Shown: positions 1 through 46,320 of the stretch, in pieces
How positions within the stretch are numbered: position 1 is the stretch's first letter
How the letters are laid out: each line of letters begins with the position of its first letter
Source of the DNA: Rhizodiscina lignyota
Taxonomy: Eukaryota
DNA length: 64,000 nucleotides
Assembly (NCBI GenBank): GCA_010015805.1
Contig: ML978121.1
Span: 930,001 to 994,000 of the forward strand
Direction: 5' to 3'
Translations under genes and position numbers: made by a program
The notes under the pieces: model-generated
Told to the model about the DNA's origin: nothing
The model's database searches: none
The model's input: only the letters and a program-made list of their open reading frames with translations

Positions 1-1895
1 AGGGAAAGTTGCCAAAGCCAGGGGCACCAAAAGTGAAGCAGAGCTAAAAGAGTTAAAGAGCAACTTAATGGGAGAGGCAATGAAAGAGCTAATAGCGAAT
101 GGCTCCAAGGTGCTTCGCTTTAAAAGATTCGGGAAAGGCTGGACAGGGATCCCAATAAGTCGATCAATGGTAGAGGAGGCGAGCAGGCAAATCGATGCAA
201 AAAGCCACAGAACCGATAACGAGCGAGACGCATCCGATATCGAGTTGAGAGACGCAGCGCAGAAACTACCATCTGAAAGACATAGGTCTTCACGCGCTCA
301 AGCAGAGACTTCCGGGAACACCGAAGCTAATAACCATGGCATTTCCGGGACCGAGTCTGTCCATGAGCCTGCGACTAACCACCTCCGGGACCAGCAGAGC
401 TCCAAAACGCCAGATCACATGGAACCGAACATGCAAAGCAAGAATGTTGCCATAGCAGAACATAGCGATTTAGCTTCGGTTCCAACCAGACCAGTGCCAG
501 ACATCCGACAGATCGAACCAGATGAAAGCATACAAGATTTGCCACAAGAGAGTCAATGCGAGGGTTCTTTGATCCATGGGGCAAAAGATCACGGTCAAGT
601 CCAAGAGTCGTCGAAGGGAGCCTCAGAACTGGATCAGCGGGCCACGCCATCTAATACAAGAGAAAAAGCGGTAGACGATCAGCTCAAACGGATGGAGGAA
701 CGGATAGCTCAGACGGGGGATGAGTACAAAGAGATTCTCAACTTGCTGCGTTCGCAACAGTATAGAGGCCAAAAAGAGCAGAGTATTCCGAACGACCCAA
801 CAAACATACTTCAGACCACGCGAGACGAGTATGCATCGATCCTCGCCAAAAAGGACGAAGAAATCAACGATCTTCGAAACCAACTGAATGATGCACAGAA
901 CGCAGCAAGATATGTGGGAGAAGTGAGCGAAATTAACCATCAAATCCATGTCGAGCAACCCATGGCCGTTATTTTCGAGACACGTATCAAGCAGGCGGCC
1001 CAGGCTATCTCCGTGAATTTGTCGAAACCACTTCAGAATCCGAGACCAGGATCCGTCGCAGCTAGACTGCTGATACGTGCTTGCACCGGTAGACCAGAGA
1101 GTCTCTGTACAGGTGTGCCGACATTGGATATAATGAACATGGACCCACAGGCAGTAGTACGTGCGCTTGTCGCTGCATTTGTCCAAGAACAGGTGTTCGA
1201 AGAAGAGTGGCCAAAGTTTGATCAGGATGAGTCACGTCTCTTGAAGTACTCTCGGGAATTCATTGCTTCCCAAGACGGTAATTCCTTCAAACCCTGGGCC
1301 AGACGACTCGAAGCTCGATACTGACATGATATTAGGAGGCTTGAAATTTATCCAAGTCGTCAACCACATAGCGCACAAGAAGCTAGTTAATGAAGCATCG
1401 TTCAAAACAGAAATGGTTGCCGGGAAAGTAGGGCGGCTGATGATCTTACTCTTGGAAGTCCTGGCCGATATCATTTCGCCCAAAAAGGATAACGAGACTC
1501 CGGACATAGGCGCAAACTGTATTCTTCCGATGCCATCCGAACACCTCCTCTATAGCTCGATGCACAAGGCATTGCTCCTCAAAACTCAGGTCCTTCTGAG
1601 TCCCAACATCTTCAGGTCGTACCATGTCCCTGCAGGTACACAGTTCAACCCAAAATTCATGAAGATGGAGACGAAGAACATGGTAGTGGAGGAGTTGGAA
1701 GTCGGTGCCGATGCAGTTGTAAAGTTGTGCTTATCGCCGGCGATTCTCTACTGGGACGGGCTGAAGACACCGGAAGGACGTGGGAGATACGAGCAAGTAG
1801 CATTTCGCTACAGCACATTCTGGCCCTGGGATCCACATGACGAGAGTCAGAAAGATCCTTATTGCCACTCCAAGGCGATTGTCATTATCGAGTAG
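1..1895 (+). CDS. Hypothetical protein, probably 5'-truncated by the window edge; low-complexity N-terminal half, coiled-coil-like middle
   Basis: Frame is open from base 2 (first ATG 68). Intron 1278..1335 (GTAATT...CTGAC...TAG) joins ORF 68..1324 in frame to ORF 1263..1895. No family motif recognised. Confidence 0.6.
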
Positions 1896-3993
1896 TTGGC
1901 TGTCTAGGGTGGGTTGCTCTGGTCTTTGGGCTCGCCTGTTCCGCGCACATGGATAAGGGAGTTAGTAATGAATTGATTCTGCGTGGATAGCTGAGCACTA
2001 CCAATTCGAATGGTATTTGGAGGAGTTGGTCTGAACCTTGAGGAGTGTCTATCTTCGCGGAAGACACTACACTAAAAGTACATACACGAGTTAGCAATCT
2101 GATTCAATGGGCTTCAACATCTAAATACGCAGCGTATCTCGCTAGGAAGGCTCGACGTTAAAGAGACACGACAAACAGATATTGCTACATGCTAGACCTT
2201 CTACAGCTGGCCATTTTCTTTTACCGAGGCAGCTGCAAGTACAAAGACTTGAATGTAATGCTGCAGAAACTAAGGGTCAGAGCAGGCTAAAGTCTGGCTT
2301 AAGCCAGTGTGACATCGATCGACAAACAAACCCTGGGATAAGACTTCTCACGCGACATACGGTGCGACGAGTTCGATTGTTTTCGAACAGCGACTTTAAA
2401 GGAGGTATCTGGAGTGAAGTGGTTAGATGGATGAAAAAGGCGTTGGCGCATGAGACGAGGTCTGCCACCACTGCCCCGGGGCGCTAATCCCCTTACAGTA
2501 AGGTAGACCTGATCTGAGTACGTGGATAGAATTGATTATTCTTTACTGCAAATCTACACTGTACGACTTGTGTTTGTCTACGATTTCAGCTACAAAGTTG
2601 CAAAGAAGCTCAGCGTGCGTCTTTAAGCACGCTGAAATATAAGCATCAGAGCTGCTGATGCCGGTCCAGAACGATCCGAAGAATATACCATGACTTCCAG
2701 AGATATCTTCGATTATGTACCTTAAAGTGCAAGACTAACTCATAGTAAGACGTTGCCAATTTGATCGATCAAACAATTATCAGGCTTGAGTACGTCTATC
2801 GGCCCAGTCGCGAGATAACGTCGCGATGCTCGCAACTATCCGGAGACACGAACGATAGCGCTGTACGTTTGTGTCTGCACCTGCTGTCTAAGGGCAAGAG
2901 AAGTATAAGGGGAGCCTTGAGTCCAATATACCGTGTACATGTGATATATTTTCAGGGAGTGTAGTTGAAATGAATCAGCGCCCACATGATGGAGTACATC
3001 GAAAGGTCTAACAAAATAATGGGCAATCAGTACACAGGATACGAGCACGTTGGGTTTGATATCCAAGAACCAATATCCAGATATGAGTCCTTCGTCTCTA
3101 TGGCAGGGCATAGAAGGCAGGGTATGGTGGGCATTGAAGCATTCATGATGCCAACGACTTCAGAGGCCTGAATGGATAATAGCGATAAAAGGTATCAAAG
3201 GCCACTTTCAGCCCGAGCGCTACCGAAGATTGTTCTTATCCATGGCCACTGATCAAAGTCTCCGCTAAAATAATGATAGGGTGGCTGCAAGACAAGTTCC
3301 TGTGTGGAGAGCCGCCATCTCATCATTACGCTGGTTGTCCAAGTTGGTGAACTCGTGCATGTTCGAACAAAAGCCTCGGTGGGTTGTAGTCGTCATAGAA
3401 AATTCGGTGAAGCCGAAGACCTATCCGAGTCAACTTAGTACTGCCACCGGTGAAGCTGCCTACTGGCTTCGACGATTGCATGGGAGGATACTTGGTGCCA
3501 CGACAAAAGGAGCCTTGCAACGAATGCATGCAAATGGATGTGACACAGGTGTTGGGCCTTAGAAAATGTTAATGGAGACAAGATGTAAAATAATGGATAC
3601 CTAAGCTGAATCCGGGCCAAGTCCTGTGATTATTGGGTTCTTGGGGAAATACCTTCAGCCCTCAGGAGTGAGAGTGGGCTTGAAGCATACATAAAGCATT
3701 TGCATGAGGCAAAGAAGGTGAGGTCGAATAGCATTTACCGGTCAAACGTCCGCGTCCGCTCATCGGCCGCGGGACTGGGTTGACCATCCTTCTGACCTGC
3801 AGGAGCTGGGCAGGGGCAAGCAAATGGGAGCTGCTTGAGCTGTGCTCTGGCAGAGGAGCAGCCTCATCCCTCGCAGCATCAGCACCACCTTGAATCAAGG
3901 GGGCGAAGCTCATGCGTACGTTTTGCCAGAGAAGGTATCACTCTGAGCTCGTCTGTGGAGTCGGCGAAGATGACATTCCAAGCAAGCTCGCCT

Positions 3994-35246: not shown

Positions 35247-35261
35247 GAGTATAAATACTTC
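35247..35261 (+). promoter_or_regulatory. TATA element of the U2 snRNA gene
   Basis: GAGTATAAATACTTC with TATAAATA at 35250-35257, about 44 nt upstream of the U2 5' end, followed by a pyrimidine tract. Confidence 0.75.
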
Positions 35262-35293
35262 TCATTCTTCGAGCTTCCTACCTCTTTTCTCTT

Positions 35294-35483
35294 CAGCTCT
35301 CTTTGCCTTTTGGCTTAGATCAAGTGTAGTATCTGTTCTTTTCAGGTTAATCTCTGAAACCAGACTACGGTCTGAACAAGATTACCCTAATATTTGGCAC
35401 CGGGGGGGATTCCTCTAAGCTTAGCTTATGCTTCCTCCCACTGTGTCGCCGGTATTGTACTACCTCCGGCTGACGCGACCGAA
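35294..35483 (+). ncRNA. U2: U2 spliceosomal snRNA
   Basis: Conserved 5' block CTCTTTGCCTTTTGGCTTAGATCAAGTGTAGTATCTGTTCTTTTCAG with branch-pairing GTAGTA (35326-35331); stem IIa TTTCAG/CTGAAA; stem IIb CAGAC-TACG-GTCTG; Sm-like site 35390-35396; stem III; stem IV GTGTCGCCGG-loop-CCGGCTGACGC. Ends are approximate. Confidence 0.93.
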
Positions 35484-35884
35484 GTTCGATTTTCATTGAT
35501 GATTCTTGCCTTGAGCAGGAGGTTGACGAAGAGAGAACCCTGATTGCTGCTTAATATGACATAATGCGAAGTGACGGGATACGTTGAGTGAGTTCCAAGG
35601 CTGCGGTTGAGTCGTTGTGTTTTGAAATGTAGATGTAAGTGTGTCCCTGGATGCGTCATTCCAAGGCCGTGGTTGAGTTGTTGTTGAGTTGTTTAGATGT
35701 ATCTTACGAAGGTAGGCGAAAGTGCGTCCCAATTTGGGTGGCTAGGCGTTGTGCGGCGACGAAGTGTAAATACTTTCCTTAGCATCAAAACTTCATCTTG
35801 AAATGAAGCTCAAGTTAGTAAAATCAATCTAACATCACTTCCGGTCTCTGCAAGAAACTTTTACTACCCCATAACCCCCCAAAA

Positions 35885-36975
35885 ATGGCCTCGCAGCAAG
35901 GAATGGTTGATGCCGCCATTTTCGAGGACCTCCAAGCTCGCGTGGACCAAGATGCTACCTTTCGCGACGTGGGCTGCTTCTACCTCTAAATCTTCCATCA
36001 CCTCCCTGACAACACTTAGGAGATAAAAGAGATCGTTCAAGTGCTCGAGAAACAAAGTACATATCCCCGATCATTGGCTGTGGATATTGTGAGGGCTGAC
36101 CTGCCGAAAAGCCCGCACTGCGCAGTCCATACTCTCCAAAGCGCACTCGACGCCTACATCGCAAAGTACGACCGTCATCATCCCCTCAAGCCCTCATAAC
36201 GCCCACTGAGCCGTTTTAGTCAATGATGTGATCACGGCCGGTAATGCTGCCATCCAGGCAGAGGCCGACACGGTGGCCAAGCTCTCCACGACCGCGTCCC
36301 AACAACCATACTACAAATGGAACAACATGTGGTCGAGACAGATGCAGGATGTGGTAGGAGCACACAGGGGACATTGGCCGACTGTTGGACTGACCATGGA
36401 AGATTTTCTCAATCCTCTTATGTGGCTGGCTGGGAGCCAATCCGACAGAACCTTCGGGCCAGTTGTTGACCATTGAGAGAGTGGCAAGCATCCTAAACAG
36501 TACGTGGACCTTATATACGTTGGTAGGAACAGCCTGACCTGGAGAATAGTTCCAGTAAACCTTAAGGATCGGGACGCATTCCACATTACCATAGAGGAGT
36601 ATCTCCAAGCTCTTATCTCGCTTCTCGATGAGCTGGTATGCACCGTTCGACTTTGAGAGAAAGAAACTTATGTACCTAACGTTACTAATCATAGGCAAGA
36701 CTTGCACGCAACTCTGTCACGTTGGGAGACTACCGTCGTCCTCTCCAGATTAGCCAGTTCGTGAAAGACGTACACGCCGGCTTCCAGATACTCAACCTCA
36801 AGAACGACTCGTTGAGGAGGCGTAGTGACGGCATCAAATATAGGGTGAGCTTTCCCCCGAGAATAGTTGACGCGTAGCAAGAGAAACAAAGCTGACGAGA
36901 TGGTCCCGTTAGGTTAAGGAGGTTGAGGATGTGGTGTACGACTTGTCGCTCAGGAACCTCATCCCTAAGGAATGA
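35885..36975 (+). CDS. TSN: Translin (C3PO subunit)
   Basis: Multi-exon: MASQQGMVDAAIFEDLQARVDQD..., QQPYYKWNNMWSR, VPVNLKDRDAFHITIEEYL, LARNSVTLGDY, GFQILNLKNDSLRRRSDGIKY, VKEVEDVVYDLSLRNL. Confidence 0.9.
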
Positions 36976-38206
36976 GAGAGATTGTGTGGGGAAAGGTTTC
37001 GTGGCCTCATCAAAGAAGGATGTGGGGAACTCGGATCAATGTCGGAGCGTTGATTCATTTCATCGAGTGCGCTATAGTGATTACGCGTGAATTAGTGGTT
37101 GAATTCACTCAGTCAACATCACATTTCTCTCCGCGGAACCACTACTATTCATATATCTGATACAACTCTGTAGGATTATCAGACGACGCAATCGCCAATT
37201 GCTACATTTGTAAACAGAGACTGAAAGACACAAAGGATGTCGGGGTAGAGGACTTCGCCAATTTGTCCTGTTGATTTTCCTGTGGTTGGCCGGAAGAGTG
37301 CCCAACGCCTGGCAGTGCTCCAACCGCAGCACCAACGTACCCGGCGGTCTGTGGAAGTTGTCTATGCCACTACAATGGGCTACCGCTAACACACCTCGAC
37401 TCGTCCATACGTAACCATCTACAGCTGGAAATGCTTCTCAGCATCATCAACATCTGGCGATGATCAGAGCGACCACAGCGTAGATATGGAATATAGAAAC
37501 ACGTACTTAATTGAACAGATGTGAGACTATATAAAGATCCACGATAGTACCAACAAGCTCCTGATATTTCCTTGCTCTTGGACCATTCAACTAAATACAG
37601 GCGATCGGACGTCGAGTCGAGTATCAATTGCCGATGCCTGCCACTGCCAGTAGAGATAGACAGTGACCGCTTATAAATTAGTATATCGGAATTCAGAATA
37701 CCTGACGACCACTTTCTTTGCCCTCAACAAGTCAAGCTTGATTACGATGGTCTTAGAGCTAGAGGCATCCCTTCCAGCACTTGATTCTAGTCCGGATGTC
37801 CCTTGCAGACACAGACGGCACATCTTCATTTAGTTGTGCAATCCGCAATGCACCTTTGGGGTCAGACTGTGTCCATTCTGAGGCTGAATTACTTCCATTG
37901 ACAGCTATGTATCAAAGACGAAGTTCGATAGGACTTCAAGGCCTGTCTCGGTTTGGTCTGCGGAGTAGTGAGATTCACGGCATAATCTAGACGATCGATG
38001 ACACAGAGAATACACTCGCTAGATTAATCTTCGTCATTGTGCGCGAAAAACCTGAGAAAATAAATTTAATGCCATGTTCTGAGTTGTTCCTGACAAGGTG
38101 AGGTGGAGCTCGCCGGGACGAGCTTGCAACTTCGCATATTTCCTGAAATTCTCTAGCTTCAATTCCGTCCAAGGCGTCACGTTCGTCATTCATCGGCGCC
38201 TCCAGA

Positions 38207-39050
38207 ATGAATCGACACGCTCTCATAACGGAGAAGAAGGGTGCTGGCCCTGAGAAGAGCGACCAGAAAGCGCCTCCATCACCGGCGCCGTCGCCCTCGG
38301 CCCCAATCACAACGCTCGACAGTGGCCTCGCGCGCATCTATACTCATCTCCACCCACTGCTGGTTCTGTCGCTGTTCTTCTTTCGCTTCCAAGCAACAGT
38401 AGAGGATCCGGTGACTACTCTCACAAATGGACTGGCCCCACTTGGAATCCTGCAGATAATCTACGTGGTATTATGTCTACCTGCAACGGGCAGCTCCACG
38501 CCGTCGAGTGCCGCAAAGCCTACACCAAAACCCAGTAGAGGAAAGAAAACGCAGGCCGGTAAGGGCGATGGTGGAGTTGCAGGCAGAACTGTCGTATGTA
38601 TTCGAGAATATGCAAGTCTTCTCTCTACTAACCTTTGGTGTTCAGCCGGCGATGTTATCCCACCTTCTCACCACTTTGCTTGCAACGCCCCTGCTCACCA
38701 TAATCCTCATCCTCTTCGGCGCGCCAGTGACATCCAAATTGTGGGAGACTCTCCTCTGCGCTGCGCATATGTCCGCTCTCGCTATCATGCCGCTCGTTTA
38801 CGTACACGGCGTGGACGAAGGGAGATGGTGGGAAGTCGCCAGTCTGATGAGTCCAGTTGATGAAGTATTTGGTGCGGCGATTGGGACAATGGTGGGAGCT
38901 TGGGCGGGCGCTGTGCCTATTCCGCTGGACTGGGACAGAGAGTGGCAGAAGTGGCCGGTCACGATAGTCACGGGCGCATACATGGGCTGGGCGGTCGGGA
39001 AGCTTTTGGGAGGCACACTGTTGAGAGGCAAGAGAATAGATTTGGGATAG
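38207..39050 (+). CDS. GPI11: GPI-anchor biosynthesis protein PIG-F/Gpi11
   Basis: Signature GAWAGAVPIPLDWDREWQKWP and ILFGAP; intron 38594..38645 joins the two ORFs. Confidence 0.92.
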
Positions 39051-39199
39051 AGGCAATGGAGAAGAGCGCATGTATCACTTCAAGGACTGCAGTTGAATTG
39101 GATCGGATCGATTGAACGTTTGTTTGATTTCCTCTATATACATGCTGTGCGAACGACAAAGATCGAGAGCGACGCGCCATCACCACATCTCCGATGGAT

Positions 39200-40132
39200 C
39201 AAAAAGAAAGAAAGTGAGGTACCAACCTGTCGACAAGATACTCAGGGCGCCATGTCCTCCCGGCGAGCAGTGAGGGCCAGCCTGTTCGAGAATGTCAGCG
39301 ACGTGAGCAAGCAGAAGGGGCGAAGACAACTTACCCAGGCAGCATATTGAATGCACCGCCGAAGCCCAAGAGCCGCCCGTAGGCCGTCTGCCTGTTTCGG
39401 TCACGCTCGCCGCCGATTCGATCACTACTGAGACACACATTGGAGCTCGCCGCCGCGGAGAAATGCCCAACCAATTTCTTGGTTGGTGAAAACCCCTTTG
39501 TGACTGTCCGCAGACGTCGGGATTTTAACTGACAGTTGCAAGATGTTTATTGTCCAGCAGGCTAGGGACAGACCGCGATGGTCGGAGGCGATTGACAAGA
39601 GGCTGAGCTCACAAGTGTAGCTTCAGAGCCGTCCTCGTTCCGCGCGGTCCATGCCATCATTGCTCAGGTGCTGGACGGTCTCGGCCCCCTTCCCAAACCG
39701 CAGCGGACACACCTCACTTGACGTAGCAAGTGTGGTGGAGCTCCAGATGTGATCAATATGCCGTGACTCTCAGCCACCAACCTCTTGCGCGCGCCGGCAT
39801 TGAGGTGTGATGACTGATCACGGAGGTCTTCGCGGGGGTACAGCGAAGACCAGAAATGTTAAGGGACAAATACCTGCTACCACCACTTGCAATGCAAGCA
39901 GTGGGTGGAGCAACGTGGGTAGAGATCTGTAGTGCGTGTGTCAGTACAAGAGCTTGGAAAAAAACAAAACAAGCAAAAAACAAGTGCGTGTGGCTGATGG
40001 CGCGCGCTCTGAGGGGAGAAGGAGATCAATCCATTCAAGCTAAGAAGCTATCATCTGGAATGACTCTGCGCAAAACCCAATGCAAGAGAGGTGTTGGAGT
40101 TGTGTGAAACCTCCATGGGTTTTGGCACAACT
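39200..40132 (-). ncRNA. Candidate unclassified structured, spliced non-coding RNA with an snRNA-like promoter (3' end uncertain)
   Basis: U2-identical TATA 15-mer at 40184..40170; no credible ORF; at least 8 hairpins including GAAA and C(UACG)G tetraloops on the minus strand; canonical intron 39334..39282. See findings. Confidence 0.5.
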
Positions 40133-40169
40133 GAGGGAGAAAAGAAAAGTTGAAAGTTTGAAAGAGAGG

Positions 40170-40184
40170 GAAGTATTTATACTC
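40170..40184 (-). promoter_or_regulatory. TATA element identical to that of the U2 gene
   Basis: Minus strand reads GAGTATAAATACTTC, then about 40 nt of pyrimidine-rich sequence to CTC|AG at about 40132. Confidence 0.65.
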
Positions 40185-41891
40185 GCGAAGGTCGAGACGC
40201 ACGGAGCACATGAACTCAGCGCGACGTCATGAATGCCGCGGAAGCCGTGGTGTGGCCGGGAGATTACACTTCAGTGTCATGGTGTTGCTAGAGGCAGCGC
40301 GCGGAGGCCAGCTTCCCATTGGCTACAAACGCCCAACGCTCAAGATCAAAAGACTAAAAACTGGAGAACTGGGGCCACTCGAAACGCGCGGCGCTTAAAC
40401 TTTGTAATTCTTCGTGCAGCCATCGCAGATTGGAGGCGAAAAGCGGTGTTTTGGGGGCTTTAGCTTGCGATCAGGATTGGATTGATACGACGAATGCCAC
40501 GATTTCGAAGAATGAGCTCTGCTTCTTGGAAGGCCATCAACATTCTCAACGAAAATCGGATAATCTATCAAGCGGAACTCCATGCCTGCTCATGGGGAGG
40601 TCTCTCTCTCTCTTCGTACGCGTGCTAAGTGCCACTAGCGCAGCCAAACGAAGACGCGACATGAAGATACCCGACCGCACAAGGCCAAATATTGGCTTAT
40701 TTCACATGTTTACTTCACGCGTTTTACCAGATGGTGTTCATCTATCACCGTGCTGTTGATCTTGTACTTCGCTGGAACGGCTGACGCGACTTTGCAGCGA
40801 ATACGTCGAAATTTATGAAACTACGCATATCCACTACTTCTCTAACATCTTGGGCACCCAGTTGTCAAATCTAAATTCAATATTTCTCATGTGGAGGTTT
40901 GCAATGTTGCTCTATGGATTTTGGGTCGCTGGAGACATTCACTCGAAGTCGTGTCTTGGCAGCGGAAATCGCCGCTCTAAATGGAGCAGCTCAGCAACGC
41001 GCAAATGCAACAGTCCAAGGAACCGTTATGGACATCTCTTAGCCACGGTGTGTGCAGCATTAAACTATCTGTCTTTTAATGATTTCGACAGTATCGAGTA
41101 TTCTCAGAGTGTCCTCCACTGGTTACTCTTCGGATGCTTGAGTATCATTCCGAACTGTGACACGAATCTCTCCCTGGTTTCGCGAGTCTAAAACGACGTC
41201 TCAATCATGTCCGATCTTTCCTTTCCGTCCTTATAACTTCTATTATGATCCCGGTAGTCTTCTGATGCTTTCCTCGTCGTGGGCTTAATTTAACAAGATT
41301 GTCTGGAGCTTTCCAGGTGCTCGCGCGGTGATACAGCTCTACGTTTCGAGTTGTTGAGAGGTCTAAGAGGTGGATACGGTGAATCGTTTGATCGGAGATT
41401 AGAGAAGTGGTTAGAGGAGCGAGCAGAAGAAAGTGTATCAGATTCCCTGTTGGTCATCTTTACCATATATACCCTGCAAAGCAGCATAGACCCAGAGACC
41501 GATGCCACACCGGCACTGCGAGCTCATCTGCGCAATTATTTGCCGCGGAACAGAATCCACGGAATGCATATGGAGTGGTTGTCATCTCCCAAGACTTTCG
41601 TGGCTGAGGCAGGAATCGTACTCGTCATGGTGAATGTAAGCAAACGGGTGGCCATGGCTGCTTGATTCAGCGTGTAATACAAGATGCGTATTGCTACCTA
41701 TTAAGATATTCCACATGTTGTACCTCTCTGCTGTGATTATAACATCCATAGCACGTGGCTTTACATCCCGCTTAGAACAGCTACAATGTTAAGCCCTTCA
41801 GGCATGTCTGACAAGATATCCTCTGCCACACACAGCAAGTACACAGCAAGATATTTGATCTCTGCAAATACTCCAGCAACTATGATCACTT

Positions 41892-43397
41892 TTAGTCATC
41901 AGGCTCATCAACCAAGTCCGGGACGTCGTCATCATCATCATCATCACCTTCAGCTTCACTTGCATCTTCCCAGTCGCTGCCATTACTACCTTCATCCTCA
42001 TCAAGCTGAGTGTCATACTCGTCCACATCGCCGTGCATCCAACCCACTCGCATGCCGATCCCATGGACGTACACCATTCGATCCGCGAGGTCCTTCAAGT
42101 ACTCGTCCATTTCTGTCCCCTCATATTCAATGGTATGCGGGCAGGTGCATCCAACTCGCATTTCCAGCCACGACCGGTGAGCCATGAGCATCATGCCCGC
42201 GTTGTCTTCGTCGGTACAACTTTTCATGCAGAACTGTTTCAAGCGGAGTTTCTCCCGGAAGAAAGGCACGTCATCCTTCCAGGTATTGTGGAGCTCCACA
42301 GTATGGAGATGAAGGCCTTCGAGCGAAGATGCGAACAGGCCCACGAAGCCGCGCATAACGGAGTTCTCCAGGTTGTCCGCATTGTTGATGAAGAGCTCCT
42401 TCACGGGTGGGTGCTTGATCGAAGCTAGATCGTCAGATGGGCCGAGGAGGTGCTTGAATGCATCGTCATTGTTCATGAGTCCGAAATCGAGGTGTAGTAT
42501 TTCCAGGTTCTCTGCGCATTCTAGGAACTGATGAAAAGATAGCCGATAGAGCCGCAAGCTTAGCGAATCAAGGTCGACGTTCAATTGCAGCTGAGTGAGA
42601 TTCTTCAATGCTACTCGCAAGTCGGGCAGGCGGTGGTCTGGACAGCAAAATATGTTCGGTTCAAATGAAATCTGGTCTCCTTGTGTGTTGGGAGCTCCCA
42701 TGGCGAATCTGGTGATGGAGGCTTTGCTCTCGGCCACGGCGCGCCAGAGAAGCTGGAAAAGGCCCATTCCCAGATGTTGGATACGGTAAAGCGATTTGCA
42801 GGGCCGGAAGTAAGTTCCACAGGCGCGATTGAAAGCAGACTTGCCCAAGCCTCTGGGCCAACGCTGCAGGCCTATGCTCTCACACTTGGAGAAGTTTTTG
42901 AGCGCGTGGCAGAATGCCGAATACACGGTTCCACCAAGGTCTACAGAGAGAAGGTAATGTTGATCCAGAGCGAATCGCTTGTACGCAGCCAGGTGCTCCG
43001 GGGCAATCGCAGGACGCATCCCGTCATCGTCGTCATCCATATCGTCCATTTCATCGTCATCTTCGTCGTCGCCGACTGGGTCGGAGAAGAAAGCGAGGCT
43101 GATGACCAGCTCACGTACCACAGATGAAAGCCTTGGGTGGTTCGAGATTTCAGTCAAGCGCTGTAGACCATCCCGCGTGAGCAGGACCTGCAGGTGAGAA
43201 AAGTGAGTTCGTGCAAAGTCATGGAACGTCTTCTCCTCCAGTGCCCTGCAAACGAGGCGCGTCGAGCATTCGTCTTTACGATCTAGAAAGTCAACATTGA
43301 TGATGGATATGATCTCTTCTGGAAGAGTGTCGAGTCTCGGAGTTTCACGCGTGTCTGCCACGGTGCTGGTCTCGAATATGTCAGAAGCGGTGGCCAT
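41892..43397 (-). CDS. F-box-like protein with LRR-like middle and acidic tracts
   Basis: Intronless 501-aa ORF; N-terminal LDTLPEEIISII...STRLVCRAL; LxxLxL units (LKNLTQLQL, LEILHL, LEGLHL); D/E-rich insert and tail. Confidence 0.7.
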   Translation of the reverse strand: MATASDIFETSTVADTRETPRLDTLPEEIISIINVDFLDRKDECSTRLVCRALEEKTFHDFARTHFSHLQVLLTRDGLQRLTEISNHPRLSSVVRELVISLAFFSDPVGDDEDDDEMDDMDDDDDGMRPAIAPEHLAAYKRFALDQHYLLSVDLGGTVYSAFCHALKNFSKCESIGLQRWPRGLGKSAFNRACGTYFRPCKSLYRIQHLGMGLFQLLWRAVAESKASITRFAMGAPNTQGDQISFEPNIFCCPDHRLPDLRVALKNLTQLQLNVDLDSLSLRLYRLSFHQFLECAENLEILHLDFGLMNNDDAFKHLLGPSDDLASIKHPPVKELFINNADNLENSVMRGFVGLFASSLEGLHLHTVELHNTWKDDVPFFREKLRLKQFCMKSCTDEDNAGMMLMAHRSWLEMRVGCTCPHTIEYEGTEMDEYLKDLADRMVYVHGIGMRVGWMHGDVDEYDTQLDEDEGSNGSDWEDASEAEGDDDDDDDVPDLVDEPDD

Positions 43398-44643
43398 GGC
43401 CGTTGTACGCTGCTCCGGAAGAATGATTCAAGGAGCTTGTATCCACTTCGAGACACGGATTTGCCGAGCCTCAGAGCTTGCAAGCTGCTGTGGTAGTGCC
43501 GCTCAACAAAAGACAGGATAAGCCACTCAAAGAGTGATGTTTCGATTTCGTAACTATCAAAAGTAAAACTGCAGCTTCGTAGATATTTAATGGGGAACTG
43601 CCTGAAATGGTAGTCGCAAAGAGGACGGCTTGGAGTCAAATGGAGAAGATGGCCTGACAGGAGCGTGAAAAGCGCCAAGCAAGGCGTCTTGACGTGGTCG
43701 GGAAAATGTCGCAATCTGGCTTCAGACAAATTCGTGCCAGAGGAGAATCAAGGTAAGGCGTGGCCTCTGGTCGACGAGCAGGAGTCAGATTGGCCTTGCG
43801 GGTTGGTGTCGCTCAGTGCGAGAAAGAGACGAGACGAAGCAAGCGTGCGGTCGCGCCAAGTTGCCTCTTAAAGAGCAACAGCCTCGTGTTTAGACGGCAT
43901 TCGAACAAAGAAAAGAAGCAGTGTTATGTGCTCGCTACAGTCTGCTTCAATGGCAGAGCACTTCACAGACTCTTGAGGGCGTCAAGCTTGTTGGTGGCGA
44001 TACAAACCAACTGCATGGGCGACGAGCGTGCCGCGGTGGGTGTGGTGAGCAACGGGTGCCCGCACTGCTGCTCGCATTTCATCACACCGCCGTCGTCGCT
44101 CCCCCGCCTCGCATGCTCTCATCTCAGTCCTGCTGCATTCTCTACGCAGACACACCTCATTATTATACCCTCGATGCTATTTTGAACGGGCCAAGAGGCG
44201 AGATTGAAGGGTGACAAGTCGGACTTGACTATGGATATGCGTTAGCGAATGGGGCCTTTTCCGTGCCTGTCAGCTGGCCAGGCTTGGGGGCACCCTGCAC
44301 GTCAGCCCTTCGAGAACGAGCAACTTCTTCTTCAGCTGAAATTGCCCGTCGCCATGAATCCAAATATTTTCACCCTTCGCGCCGCCTGCGACCCGTCCTT
44401 TCATTTCTCCCTCATGTCGCTTTACTTCGCTTCAATTAAATGCGCATGCTTTCGTTTCATCTAGCTCCAACCTCTTGCTGATCTCTTGCTATTTTTACGA
44501 GCGTTCGCAGAACTCAGCCTCCTTCCGCTCCGTTGTGGAGCCAGCACGCGGGTAGCGTGTCTGCCGTGTGAGACGTCGATCATTTAATAGTCTCCCTTAG
44601 ACTCGAGAAAGGAGTCGGCTCTTTAAACATCGGCGGAGTCGCA

Positions 44644-46320
44644 ATGCGACCCATTGCACGCCGCAACATGCCTCTCAAAAATCGCGCGACGGTGGTGCCG
44701 GCGCCGTACGTCGCCGCGCCGACACAGCAGTTCGATGGAAACGATGGCCAGTGGTCGACGTTCGCGATCAGCGTTGGAACTCCAGGACAAAGTTTCCGTA
44801 TCCTCCCTTCCACTTCCGGCTCAGAGACATGGATTCCAGTGCCTCAGGGCTGTACATCCAGCGACCCAGACAACTGCGCGAGTCTGCGAGGAGCAGATCC
44901 TTTCAATGGTCGGGCGAGTTCTGGCTTCCTCACGAACCAGTCGAGCACATGGGACGAGATTGGGCTATACAGTCTGGATCTAGAGGCGAACCTGAACTAC
45001 ACAGGCAATGGGTTGTACGGGTACGACACAGTGGCGTTGGGATCACCTTCAGACTCATCGAGGCTGTCGGTCAACCATTCTGTCGTGGCAGGAATCGCCG
45101 ATAAGGACTATTTCTTGGGCATATTCGGCCTGGGCAATCGACCGCTGAGCTTTTCAAGCAGCGCCAACAACTCGCAGGGCTTCTTGCAATTAGCGAATGA
45201 TGCGAGGGAGGTCCCAAGCTTGTCGTTCGGTTACACTGCTGGTGCTGTGTATCAGAATAAACAAGTACCAGGAAGTCTCGTACTGGGCGGATATGACTCG
45301 TCTCGCTTCACCGCAAACGACATGTCTTTCTCATTCGCTAGCGCCGACGCGAAGGCCCTGACAGTCGGCGTGCAGAGCATAATAGCGGACAACACACTCC
45401 TTGGTACTGCCTCTTTTACCGAAGGCAGCGGTGGCTTTCTCGCTGTCGTAGACTCCACAGTTCCCTACCTCTTCTTACCGAACCAAACATGCGACACCAT
45501 GGCAAATGCGCTGGGCCTTACCTTTGATGAGACGACAGAGCTCTACACCATCAACGACACCATGCATTCAAAACTCAAATCCCTCAACCCATCGTTCACC
45601 TTCAAACTCGGAAATACCGCGTTTGACAACGGTAATTCAACAAACATCCAACTTCCATACGCGGCATTCGACCTGCAAGCGTCATGGCCAATATATCAAA
45701 ACCCAACAAACTACTTCCCCGTTCGCCGCTCACAAAACGACACACAATACACCATTGGCCGCGCTTTTCTCCAAGAAGCCTACCTAATCGTCGATTACGA
45801 ACGCACAAACTTCTCCATCAGCCAAGCAGTCTTCTCTGATCCAATGCCCCCATCCCAAATCGTCAGCATCATAGAGGCATCCCTCTCAAACGACGACTCT
45901 TCCTCGTCGTCATCATCCCTCTCTGGCGGCGCCATTGCTGGTATCGTCATCGGCGCCATCGCAGGCGTCGTCCTCCTCGCCCTGGCCGGCTTCCTCCTCT
46001 TCCGTCGCCGGCGCGGCGGAAAGAAGACACCCGAGCTCGAAAACACCGAGGTCCACCACATGATGGATGGCGGCGCGTACAGGAAGGTTGCGGCAGATGA
46101 GGAAGGTCAGACGGCGGAGCTGGACGGCGCAAGAAATGTTGCCGAGATGGAGACGCCGACCGGCACGATGATGTCGATGAACAAGACAACGCCGATGACA
46201 CCCGCTGCGGAGATGTCTGGGGAGAGCACGGTACAGAGACATGAGATGGAGACGCCGCCAATTAGGTATGAGATGGAGGGCGATACCCCGAACAAGCCGC
46301 ATCCGTCGGTATCGGGATGA
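44644..46320 (+). CDS. Membrane-anchored pepsin-fold protein lacking the first catalytic Asp
   Basis: GTPGQSFRILPSTSGSETW (S where D is expected), GSLVLGGYD, VDSTVPY, IGRAFLQEAYLIVDYE, TM helix GAIAGIVIGAIAGVVLLALAGFLLF followed by RRRR. True start and signal exon unresolved. Confidence 0.8.
   Translation: MRPIARRNMPLKNRATVVPAPYVAAPTQQFDGNDGQWSTFAISVGTPGQSFRILPSTSGSETWIPVPQGCTSSDPDNCASLRGADPFNGRASSGFLTNQSSTWDEIGLYSLDLEANLNYTGNGLYGYDTVALGSPSDSSRLSVNHSVVAGIADKDYFLGIFGLGNRPLSFSSSANNSQGFLQLANDAREVPSLSFGYTAGAVYQNKQVPGSLVLGGYDSSRFTANDMSFSFASADAKALTVGVQSIIADNTLLGTASFTEGSGGFLAVVDSTVPYLFLPNQTCDTMANALGLTFDETTELYTINDTMHSKLKSLNPSFTFKLGNTAFDNGNSTNIQLPYAAFDLQASWPIYQNPTNYFPVRRSQNDTQYTIGRAFLQEAYLIVDYERTNFSISQAVFSDPMPPSQIVSIIEASLSNDDSSSSSSSLSGGAIAGIVIGAIAGVVLLALAGFLLFRRRRGGKKTPELENTEVHHMMDGGAYRKVAADEEGQTAELDGARNVAEMETPTGTMMSMNKTTPMTPAAEMSGESTVQRHEMETPPIRYEMEGDTPNKPHPSVSG

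Follow-up and report, generated by a model that had tools for sequence, protein, structure and literature searches.

A candidate U2-directed box C/D guide RNA in a putative snRNA-type transcription unit convergent with GPI11 in Rhizodiscina lignyota

Box C/D RNAs that guide modification of the U2 small nuclear RNA (snRNA) have been described in fungi and in human. In Neurospora, CD29 guides U2-Am31, with confirmation by primer extension, and is called a homologue of SCARNA9; its cognates in other filamentous fungi are described in the same source as guides for U2 only (PMC2780460). A catalogue of the fungal small nucleolar RNA (snoRNA) complement, the snoRNAome, places CD_29 in Glomerellales and Neurospora and the Afu-191 family, as CD_35, across Pezizomycotina (PMC5824354). 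Afu-191 itself is presented as an intergenic C/D RNA of Aspergillus fumigatus and a predicted guide for U2-Am32 (PMC2377427). Human SCARNA2 (mgU2-25/61), another U2 guide, is described as the product of its own RNA polymerase II (Pol II) unit and not of an intron (PMC2811027), and Neurospora is described as having UHG-like non-coding host genes with only short open reading frames (ORFs) (PMC2780460). Given these examples, guides of the C/D type that address U2 and come from a stand-alone non-coding unit are a known kind. Here we describe a candidate of this kind in the ascomycete Rhizodiscina lignyota. It lies in a 64,000-nt window (contig ML978121.1 of assembly GCA_010015805.1, positions 930,001-994,000, + strand; coordinates below are those of the window), on the minus strand of a 933-nt region at 39200-40132 directly downstream of GPI11, to which it is convergent on the opposite strand.

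An initial annotation had proposed a single hairpin-packed RNA of an uncatalogued class for this region. We tentatively favor a different reading, with a probability of roughly 45%: a non-coding, minus-strand Pol II precursor or host gene of the snRNA type that carries one U2-guide box C/D RNA. The features that bear on it most directly, in the putative direction of transcription, are as follows.

40137-40184, minus strand: U2-type promoter, with the TATA motif GAGTATAAATACTTC at 40184-40170 and a pyrimidine-rich spacer after it
40131-40135, minus strand: putative transcription start at 40132 (the A in cAG), placed by register with the U2 start (Rfam 35293) and by the AG aligned in nine sequences
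39710-39912, minus strand: four strong hairpins, 39912-39875, 39851-39825, 39823-39761 and 39737-39710 (z -3.68 relative to shuffled sequence)
39603-39667, minus strand: 65-nt box C/D guide-like RNA, with likeness to Rfam snoU2-30, a terminal stem, boxes and pairing with U2

The promoter resembles that of the window's own U2 snRNA gene, which lies about 5 kb from the locus at 35293-35484 (+), is uninterrupted (138.9 bits) and is all that an Rfam search of the window finds at gathering scores. In the 64 kb, GAGTATAAATACTTC (15 nt) has exactly two occurrences: one at 35247-35261 (+), which precedes U2 by some 33 nt, and one at 40184-40170 (-). Its chance expectation is 0.06 if up to two mismatches are allowed. 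By blastn, 40137-40184 aligns with 35291-35247 over 48 nt at 77% identity. A layout of TATA, pyrimidine-rich tract and YAG is common to the candidate, the window's U2 and eight U2 genes from related metagenome contigs in an alignment described as showing it in all nine sequences, and its invariant columns are the T and A of the TATA motif, a TTT in the tract and the AG. The likeness argues for a snRNA-type Pol II unit on the minus strand that would start near 40132, and the start placed by the U2 register agrees with the 5' end that the initial annotation had predicted there.

The minus-strand unit appears to have no coding capacity, as was first proposed. Pfam finds no family at its cut-off in 6 + 30 frames, no ORF in the region has a codon-usage score above noise (maximum 6.6 bits, vs 34 for the GPI11 exon), and no homologue was found for a 63-codon frame, searched among longer proteins, or for a 114-codon frame. 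With a presumably active Pol II promoter and no coding signal, the locus has the make-up of a non-coding host or precursor.

The 65-nt element is the only module of recognizable function in the region, and it was missed by the initial annotation. Its terminal stem, CUGAGC (39667-39662) with GCUCAG (39608-39603), has six Watson-Crick pairs, and AUGAUGG (39660-39654), which we accept as a C box, deviates from RUGAUGA at a single base, the last. The sheared G-A pairs and the U-U pair of a C/D kink-turn are possible from the sequence, and a single-domain C/D RNA with a terminal kink-turn is described as able to guide methylation (PMC6770171). Rfam matches the element to snoU2-30 (RF00493) at 39665-39604 (-) with 25.4 bits, the sole meaningful match for the region at E-value thresholds; its E-value rises with the length searched, from 0.0025 (106 nt) through 0.042 (1.8 kb) to 0.11 (4.8 kb), and in the longest of these stretches it is still the top match. 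The first claim that the region bears no known RNA signature is therefore true at gathering scores but overlooks one sub-threshold box C/D match. In a relaxed scan by box and stem criteria over 128 kb (both strands), four elements have a Watson-Crick stem of at least 6 bp, and by our own arithmetic a U2-complementary 9-mer would stand beside a D box by chance with a frequency of ~7e-4. A further hit of the relaxed scan at 39075-39188 (-), GUGAUGG ... GUGA closed by a 5-bp stem with one G-U, is rejected as scan background, 22 elements with a stem of at least 5 bp being found in the 128 kb; it overlaps the likely 3' untranslated region of GPI11.

The antisense element GCUACACUUG (39621-39612) pairs with positions 29-38 of the window's own U2 through nine Watson-Crick pairs and one G-U pair (duplex -15.8 kcal/mol). 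This part of U2 lies just 5' of, and reaches into, the GUAGUA branch-site-binding box, whose first base is G34. A second stretch complementary to U2, at 39802-39792 (-), pairs over 11 bp (10 Watson-Crick and one G-U) with U2 155-165 and sits within the hairpin 39823-39761 (63 nt, -32 kcal/mol); no box follows it and about 0.3 such complements are expected by chance, and we do not regard it as a second guide.

So, is this a snoU2-30 gene? The Rfam family stands for the 3' domain of mammalian SCARNA9 (mgU2-19/30), and the element shares with it the GAGC/GCUC stem, the C box, UGAAG, the antisense core CUACACUUG and the U2 stretch addressed. The alignment runs end to end over the 70-position model, and a C'-like UCUGAAG, which holds a CUGA at 39626-39623, aligns with UAUGAAG of the family. 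Unlike snoU2-30, the element has GUGA as its D box and sits in another genomic setting, and it lacks three nucleotides that the family consensus has between antisense core and D box, so that the predicted target shifts three positions, to G34 and not A31. The literature passages that we draw on mention no 2'-O-methylation at U2 G34.

Neurospora crassa CD29, compared here by description only, is likewise a fungal box C/D RNA with a D-box guide to the same U2 region, and the element is a single guide as CD29's cognates in filamentous fungi are described to be; CD29 itself is reported as 101 nt long and intron-encoded, with a 16-bp pairing and a second role in guiding 5.8S-Am42 (PMC2780460), whereas the element measures 65 nt, forms a 10-bp pairing, lacks a second guide and does not stand in register with A31. 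With Afu-191 (AM921920; CD_35) it shares, again by description, a U2-directed, intergenic and apparently independently transcribed C/D RNA, from which it differs in that Afu-191 is ~90 nt long and a double guide (5.8S-Gm75) (PMC2377427). The likeness to human SCARNA2, drawn from its description, is that of a U2-methylation guide from its own Pol II unit (PMC2811027), in another lineage, with other targets and a two-domain architecture. The locus also resembles the UHG/gas5-like host genes of Neurospora, as short non-coding Pol II genes with small ORFs, canonical intron signals and a C/D snoRNA; in those genes, however, the snoRNAs are described as occupying introns with clear boundaries, at a distance of 41-60 nt to the splice sites (PMC2780460), and here no convincing donor or acceptor flanks the element. 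Judged by its sequence, the element is built like, and probably works like, a guide of the snoU2-30/CD29 kind. We do not file it as a member of that kind because its D box, its stem II pair, its target register and its Rfam score all depart from it.

How might such a unit work? Transcription would start near 40132 from the snRNA-type, U2-like TATA promoter and head towards GPI11. The 65-nt RNA (39667-39603) would assemble with box C/D proteins, exonucleases would trim the precursor back to the particle, and the RNA would pair with the branch-site-recognition region of U2, which would make it the same functional kind as the SCARNA9 3' domain (snoU2-30), Neurospora CD29 and Aspergillus Afu-191. 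The strong hairpins at 39912-39710, 40-250 nt upstream of the C/D element, are putative cleavage sites that may offer double-strand entry to an RNase III enzyme, unless their presence is incidental. What is left of the sequence on the 5' and 3' sides would serve as leader, exon or intron and would have no structure of its own. For snoRNAs in general, precursors are described as capped, polyadenylated Pol II transcripts that mature by intron excision and/or by RNase III at hairpins (PMC12508059).

The hairpins deserve a closer look, as they were the ground for the first proposal. All of the stems listed there are in the sequence: 40071-79/40116-24 and 39825-33/39843-51 (9 bp each), 39875-39912, 39749-55/39815-21, 39710-37, 39467-86 (8 bp, with a GAAA loop on the minus strand) and 39375-84 (with a UACG loop). 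Outside the middle of the region, the individual hairpins are these.

40067-40129, minus strand: 5'-terminal hairpin, 13 bp with one bulge and the core CAAAACCCA/UGGGUUUUG (-20.2 kcal/mol)
40022-40066, minus strand: second hairpin of the 5' part (-13.4 kcal/mol)
39467-39486, minus strand: perfect 8-bp hairpin with a GAAA loop, in 266 nt that fold like shuffles

Perfect hairpins (stem of at least 8 bp, loop of 3-40) number 37 in the window, with a mean of 0.55 in bins of 933 nt. The region has three, the window maximum, which two other places equal (10 of 631 overlapping bins). Of the eight stems in the window that reach at least 9 bp, two sit in the region. Folding of the 933 nt as a whole gives similar z values for the two strands, -2.49 (minus) and -2.81 (plus), from only 20 shuffles each, and so does not select a strand. 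Taken in parts, with 200 shuffles for each, the middle (39930-39700) has z -3.68 on the minus strand, where none of the shuffles is as stable, and z -2.22 on the plus strand, with 3 of 200. For the 5' part (40132-39975, 158 nt, minus) z is -1.14, with 22 of 200 shuffles equally stable, and for the 3' part (39600-39335, 266 nt, minus) it is -0.30, with 71 of 200. A sliding scan (120-nt windows, 60 shuffles each, purpose-written shuffler) reaches z of -3 or lower only in 39760-39879 and 39800-39919. Only the middle part beats shuffles, and "hairpin-packed" is a fair description of ~200 nt but not of the whole 0.9 kb, two thirds of which fold like shuffled sequence. The GNRA and UNCG loops, offered as hallmarks of a structured RNA, cap short, isolated stems within the non-significant third. 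For a precursor carrying a U2 guide, the structured core is in a favorable place, just upstream of the C/D element, and it favors the minus strand.

A number of observations weigh against that reading. The C box ends in G, and the D box, GUGA (39612-39609) in place of CUGA, keeps the GA but has G as its first base; the canonical CUGA at 39626-39623, 13 nt towards the interior, could be closed by 3 bp only. Stem II of a kink-turn normally contains a G-C pair between position 6 of the C box and position 1 of the D box, and here G39655 faces G39612. Pairing by the antisense element amounts to just nine Watson-Crick pairs with one G-U, and the final base of the element doubles as the first base of the D box. 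With D = GUGA, the fifth-nucleotide rule places C39617 opposite G34 and leaves A31 opposite the second nucleotide, so neither A30 nor A31 is addressed. The snoU2-30 score is far under the gathering score of 60, its E exceeds 1 if scaled to the whole 64-kb window, and no Afu-type Rfam family matches the C/D element at E 10 (Rfam, we assume, holds an Afu_191 model). A splice-signal scan finds no convincing splice sites around the element; the weak candidates seen by eye, GUGAGG at 39716 and CCGAC with UAG at 39563, are absent from the scan. Read as protein, the promoter stretch also yields 19 residues that match Mpv17_PMP22 below threshold. None of the 63 loci anchored on GPI11 in metagenome contigs (45-73% protein identity, 324 kb) resembles the locus. 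Finally, the C/D element is ~465 nt from the putative start, vs the starts within 200 bp of the snoRNA described for fission yeasts (PMC4138321).

Several of these observations would also be expected if the locus made no functional RNA, with a duplicated piece of U2 promoter standing beside a decayed or chance C/D-like element (a snoRNA pseudogene) and chance stems. The deviating boxes and the broken stem II pair, the short antisense element out of register for A31, the sub-threshold Rfam score, the two thirds that fold like shuffles, the lack of similarity among the 63 loci and the recurrence of three perfect hairpins per bin elsewhere in the window all fit this explanation. We nonetheless consider it unlikely: the promoter likeness spans the full functional layout down to the start dinucleotide and is not that of a random fragment, the 6-bp terminal stem is intact, and the middle 230 nt clearly beat shuffles.

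The comparative result in particular says little either way. Sequence downstream of GPI11 amounts to at least 1000 nt in 36 of the 63 loci and at least 600 nt in 47. In all 63 loci, blastn with 39050-40300 returns only two matches of 16-17 nt (E 0.096 and 0.33), and tblastx with 39050-46000 returns none at E 1e-6, while the upstream gene at 36549-36847 matches at least 15 loci. A homologue is missing because synteny ends at GPI11, and since even the closest GPI11 is only 73% identical, the missing similarity is no evidence against function. Scans of the 324 kb with 8-mers for U2-complementary guides yield U2 genes and scattered, isolated 8-11-mers without box context, and in prokaryote genome contigs the C/D element pattern has no match, as expected.

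The inferred 5' end, the U-rich tract that follows it and the distance to the C/D element raise another explanation, in which there are two units: the U2-type promoter would drive a short snRNA-like RNA of ~150-200 nt (40132 to ~39985-39945), and the C/D element would belong to another transcript or not be expressed. The further signals on the minus strand are listed here.

39927-39985, minus strand: U-rich tract, then UACUGAC and CAG (ends 39927), resembling an intron 3' end
39546-39551, minus strand: AAUAAA, which follows the C/D element by ~50 nt and may be a poly(A) signal
39282-39334, minus strand: candidate intron of 53 nt with the canonical signals GUAAGU ... GCUGAC ... ACAG

For the tract that ends at 39927, there is no good donor downstream of the putative start; the sole good donor, GUGCGU at 40202, is upstream of the TATA motif. 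It may alternatively be a terminator-like cluster of U-rich and CUUG motifs, and the presence of CUUG/UCUUG after two 5' hairpins fits two units. The promoter does resemble those of U2 genes, which make short RNAs, and 465 nt is a long leader for a snoRNA by the fission yeast figures (PMC4138321). The 158-nt 5' part, however, folds like shuffles, has no Rfam match at E 10 and lacks an Sm-like site as well as an H/ACA or C/D layout, and upstream of the C/D element no second promoter can be made out. Two units are thus quite unlikely in our estimation.

A variant keeps a single unit and gives all of it a function. The whole transcript from ~40132 would be a capped, independently transcribed long spliceosomal guide RNA, a fungal counterpart of the stand-alone scaRNAs (small RNAs specific to Cajal bodies) of vertebrates, in which a C/D domain re-registered by the 3-nt deletion would methylate G34 and the hairpin core would be a stabilizing or localization module. 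We regard this as improbable.

The original proposal, one large structured Pol II RNA of ~0.9 kb that belongs to an undescribed class and acts as a whole, now looks distinctly improbable. A minus-strand Pol II non-coding RNA convergent with GPI11 is plausible from the promoter likeness and the lack of an ORF; what does not stand is the large, uncatalogued, structured class. The snRNA-type promoter, the absence of an ORF, the significantly structured core and the GNRA and UNCG loops on perfect stems are in keeping with it, but the 5' and 3' thirds are unstructured beyond chance, the z of the region as a whole does not differ between strands, the 63 GPI11-anchored loci hold no homologue for covariation, and the embedded guide-RNA module is a simpler account. 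The annotation was right that the large known classes are absent: four Rfam sub-searches at E 10, three of them over 241-431 nt, show no match to the spliceosomal snRNAs, U3 or RNase P/MRP, a motif scan finds no Sm-like site, and no H/ACA layout (hairpin-H-hairpin-ACA, with ACA 3 nt from the end) occurs on either strand of 39150-40140.

Could the DNA instead be the remnant of a spliced coding gene? The 63-codon frame at 40226-40038 (-), which reads through the TATA motif and the pyrimidine tract, contains 19 residues that match Mpv17_PMP22 in Pfam (19 bits, E 0.0011-0.0015, profile positions 25-43 of 62), and it could be a relic exon of an Mpv17/PMP22-family gene. Translations of 13 U2 promoter spacers, used as controls, do not match the family, so composition alone is no explanation, and the canonical intron signals at 39334-39282 would suit a spliced gene. 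The match nevertheless falls under the Pfam cut-off of 27 bits, with no other piece of the domain on the minus strand, and is the only one among 30 scanned peptides (29 minus-strand frames from 39183-41075 and one U2-promoter control). Searches for homologues found none for the 63-codon frame among longer proteins and none for the 114-codon frame, their codon usage is at noise, a motif that we take to be typical of the Mpv17 family is found in 0 of the 63 related loci, and the same DNA is the U2-like promoter, all of which makes a coding relic very improbable. A telomerase RNA, which would be a Pol II transcript with a snRNA-type promoter and a 3' end formed by a spliceosomal step at a terminal intron, could draw on the promoter type, the U-rich tract and the intron signals near the 3' end, but is extremely improbable, as known telomerase RNAs from this group of fungi are longer, searches at E 10 match no telomerase family, an Sm-like site is absent, GUAAGU is an ordinary 5' splice site, and, as the initial annotation had noted for the template, neither strand of 39000-40400 holds a 7-mer of (CCCTAA)n, which may not be the host's own repeat.

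The C-terminal exon of GPI11/PIG-F is the ORF 38568-39050 (+) (Pfam PF06699, E 2e-50; nearest atlas cluster Ascomycota). The gene extends over two frames at 38207-39050 (+), with Pfam matches in the ORFs 38207-38860 and 38568-39050, and these matches in two frames imply an intron between the two. By self-comparison, the region under study is single-copy within the window, which leads us to reject an identity as a repeat or transposon. Within it, an exact 11-nt direct repeat, GCTCGCCGCCG, occurs at 39405-39415 and 39445-39455 with a spacing of 40 nt. At 39505-39512 (-), CAGTCACA equals the core of the Homol-D box, an 8-mer that may be there by chance, ~40 nt upstream of the GAAA hairpin; the box is described in snoRNA and ribosomal-protein promoters of fission yeast (PMC4138321).

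The related loci also offer observations on U2 itself. The order U2 snRNA gene, conserved gene (36549-36847) and GPI11, found at 35293-39050 in the window, is kept in L013, L014, L015, L023, L024, L031, L036 and L037, and the likeness stops after GPI11. Some of the U2 genes are apparently split by spliceosomal introns, at ~1802-1900 in L014, ~737-835 in L015, ~782-880 in L031 and ~3037-3098 (minus) in L036. The break in the first three comes directly after GGCUUAG and is followed by GUAUGU or GUAAUU, and that in L036 falls inside the AAGUGUAG region. L024 carries two divergent U2 gene starts ~400 nt apart, at 6-97 (minus) and 338-429 (plus), whose paired promoters have a 31-nt stretch in common at 87% identity.

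The main practical result is that a "large unknown structured RNA" is downgraded, and on the favored account no new RNA class is involved. Should the region be a precursor carrying a U2 guide, it would be a stand-alone guide-RNA gene for the branch-site-recognition region of U2 that shares its promoter type with the RNA it addresses. Such a gene would also be an example of how a small indel beside the D box may re-aim or disable a guide, would help in the annotation of snoRNA and scaRNA genes in fungi, which are lacking from most genome annotations, and would offer a directly testable prediction on the modification of U2 in Rhizodiscina lignyota, at A31 or at G34.

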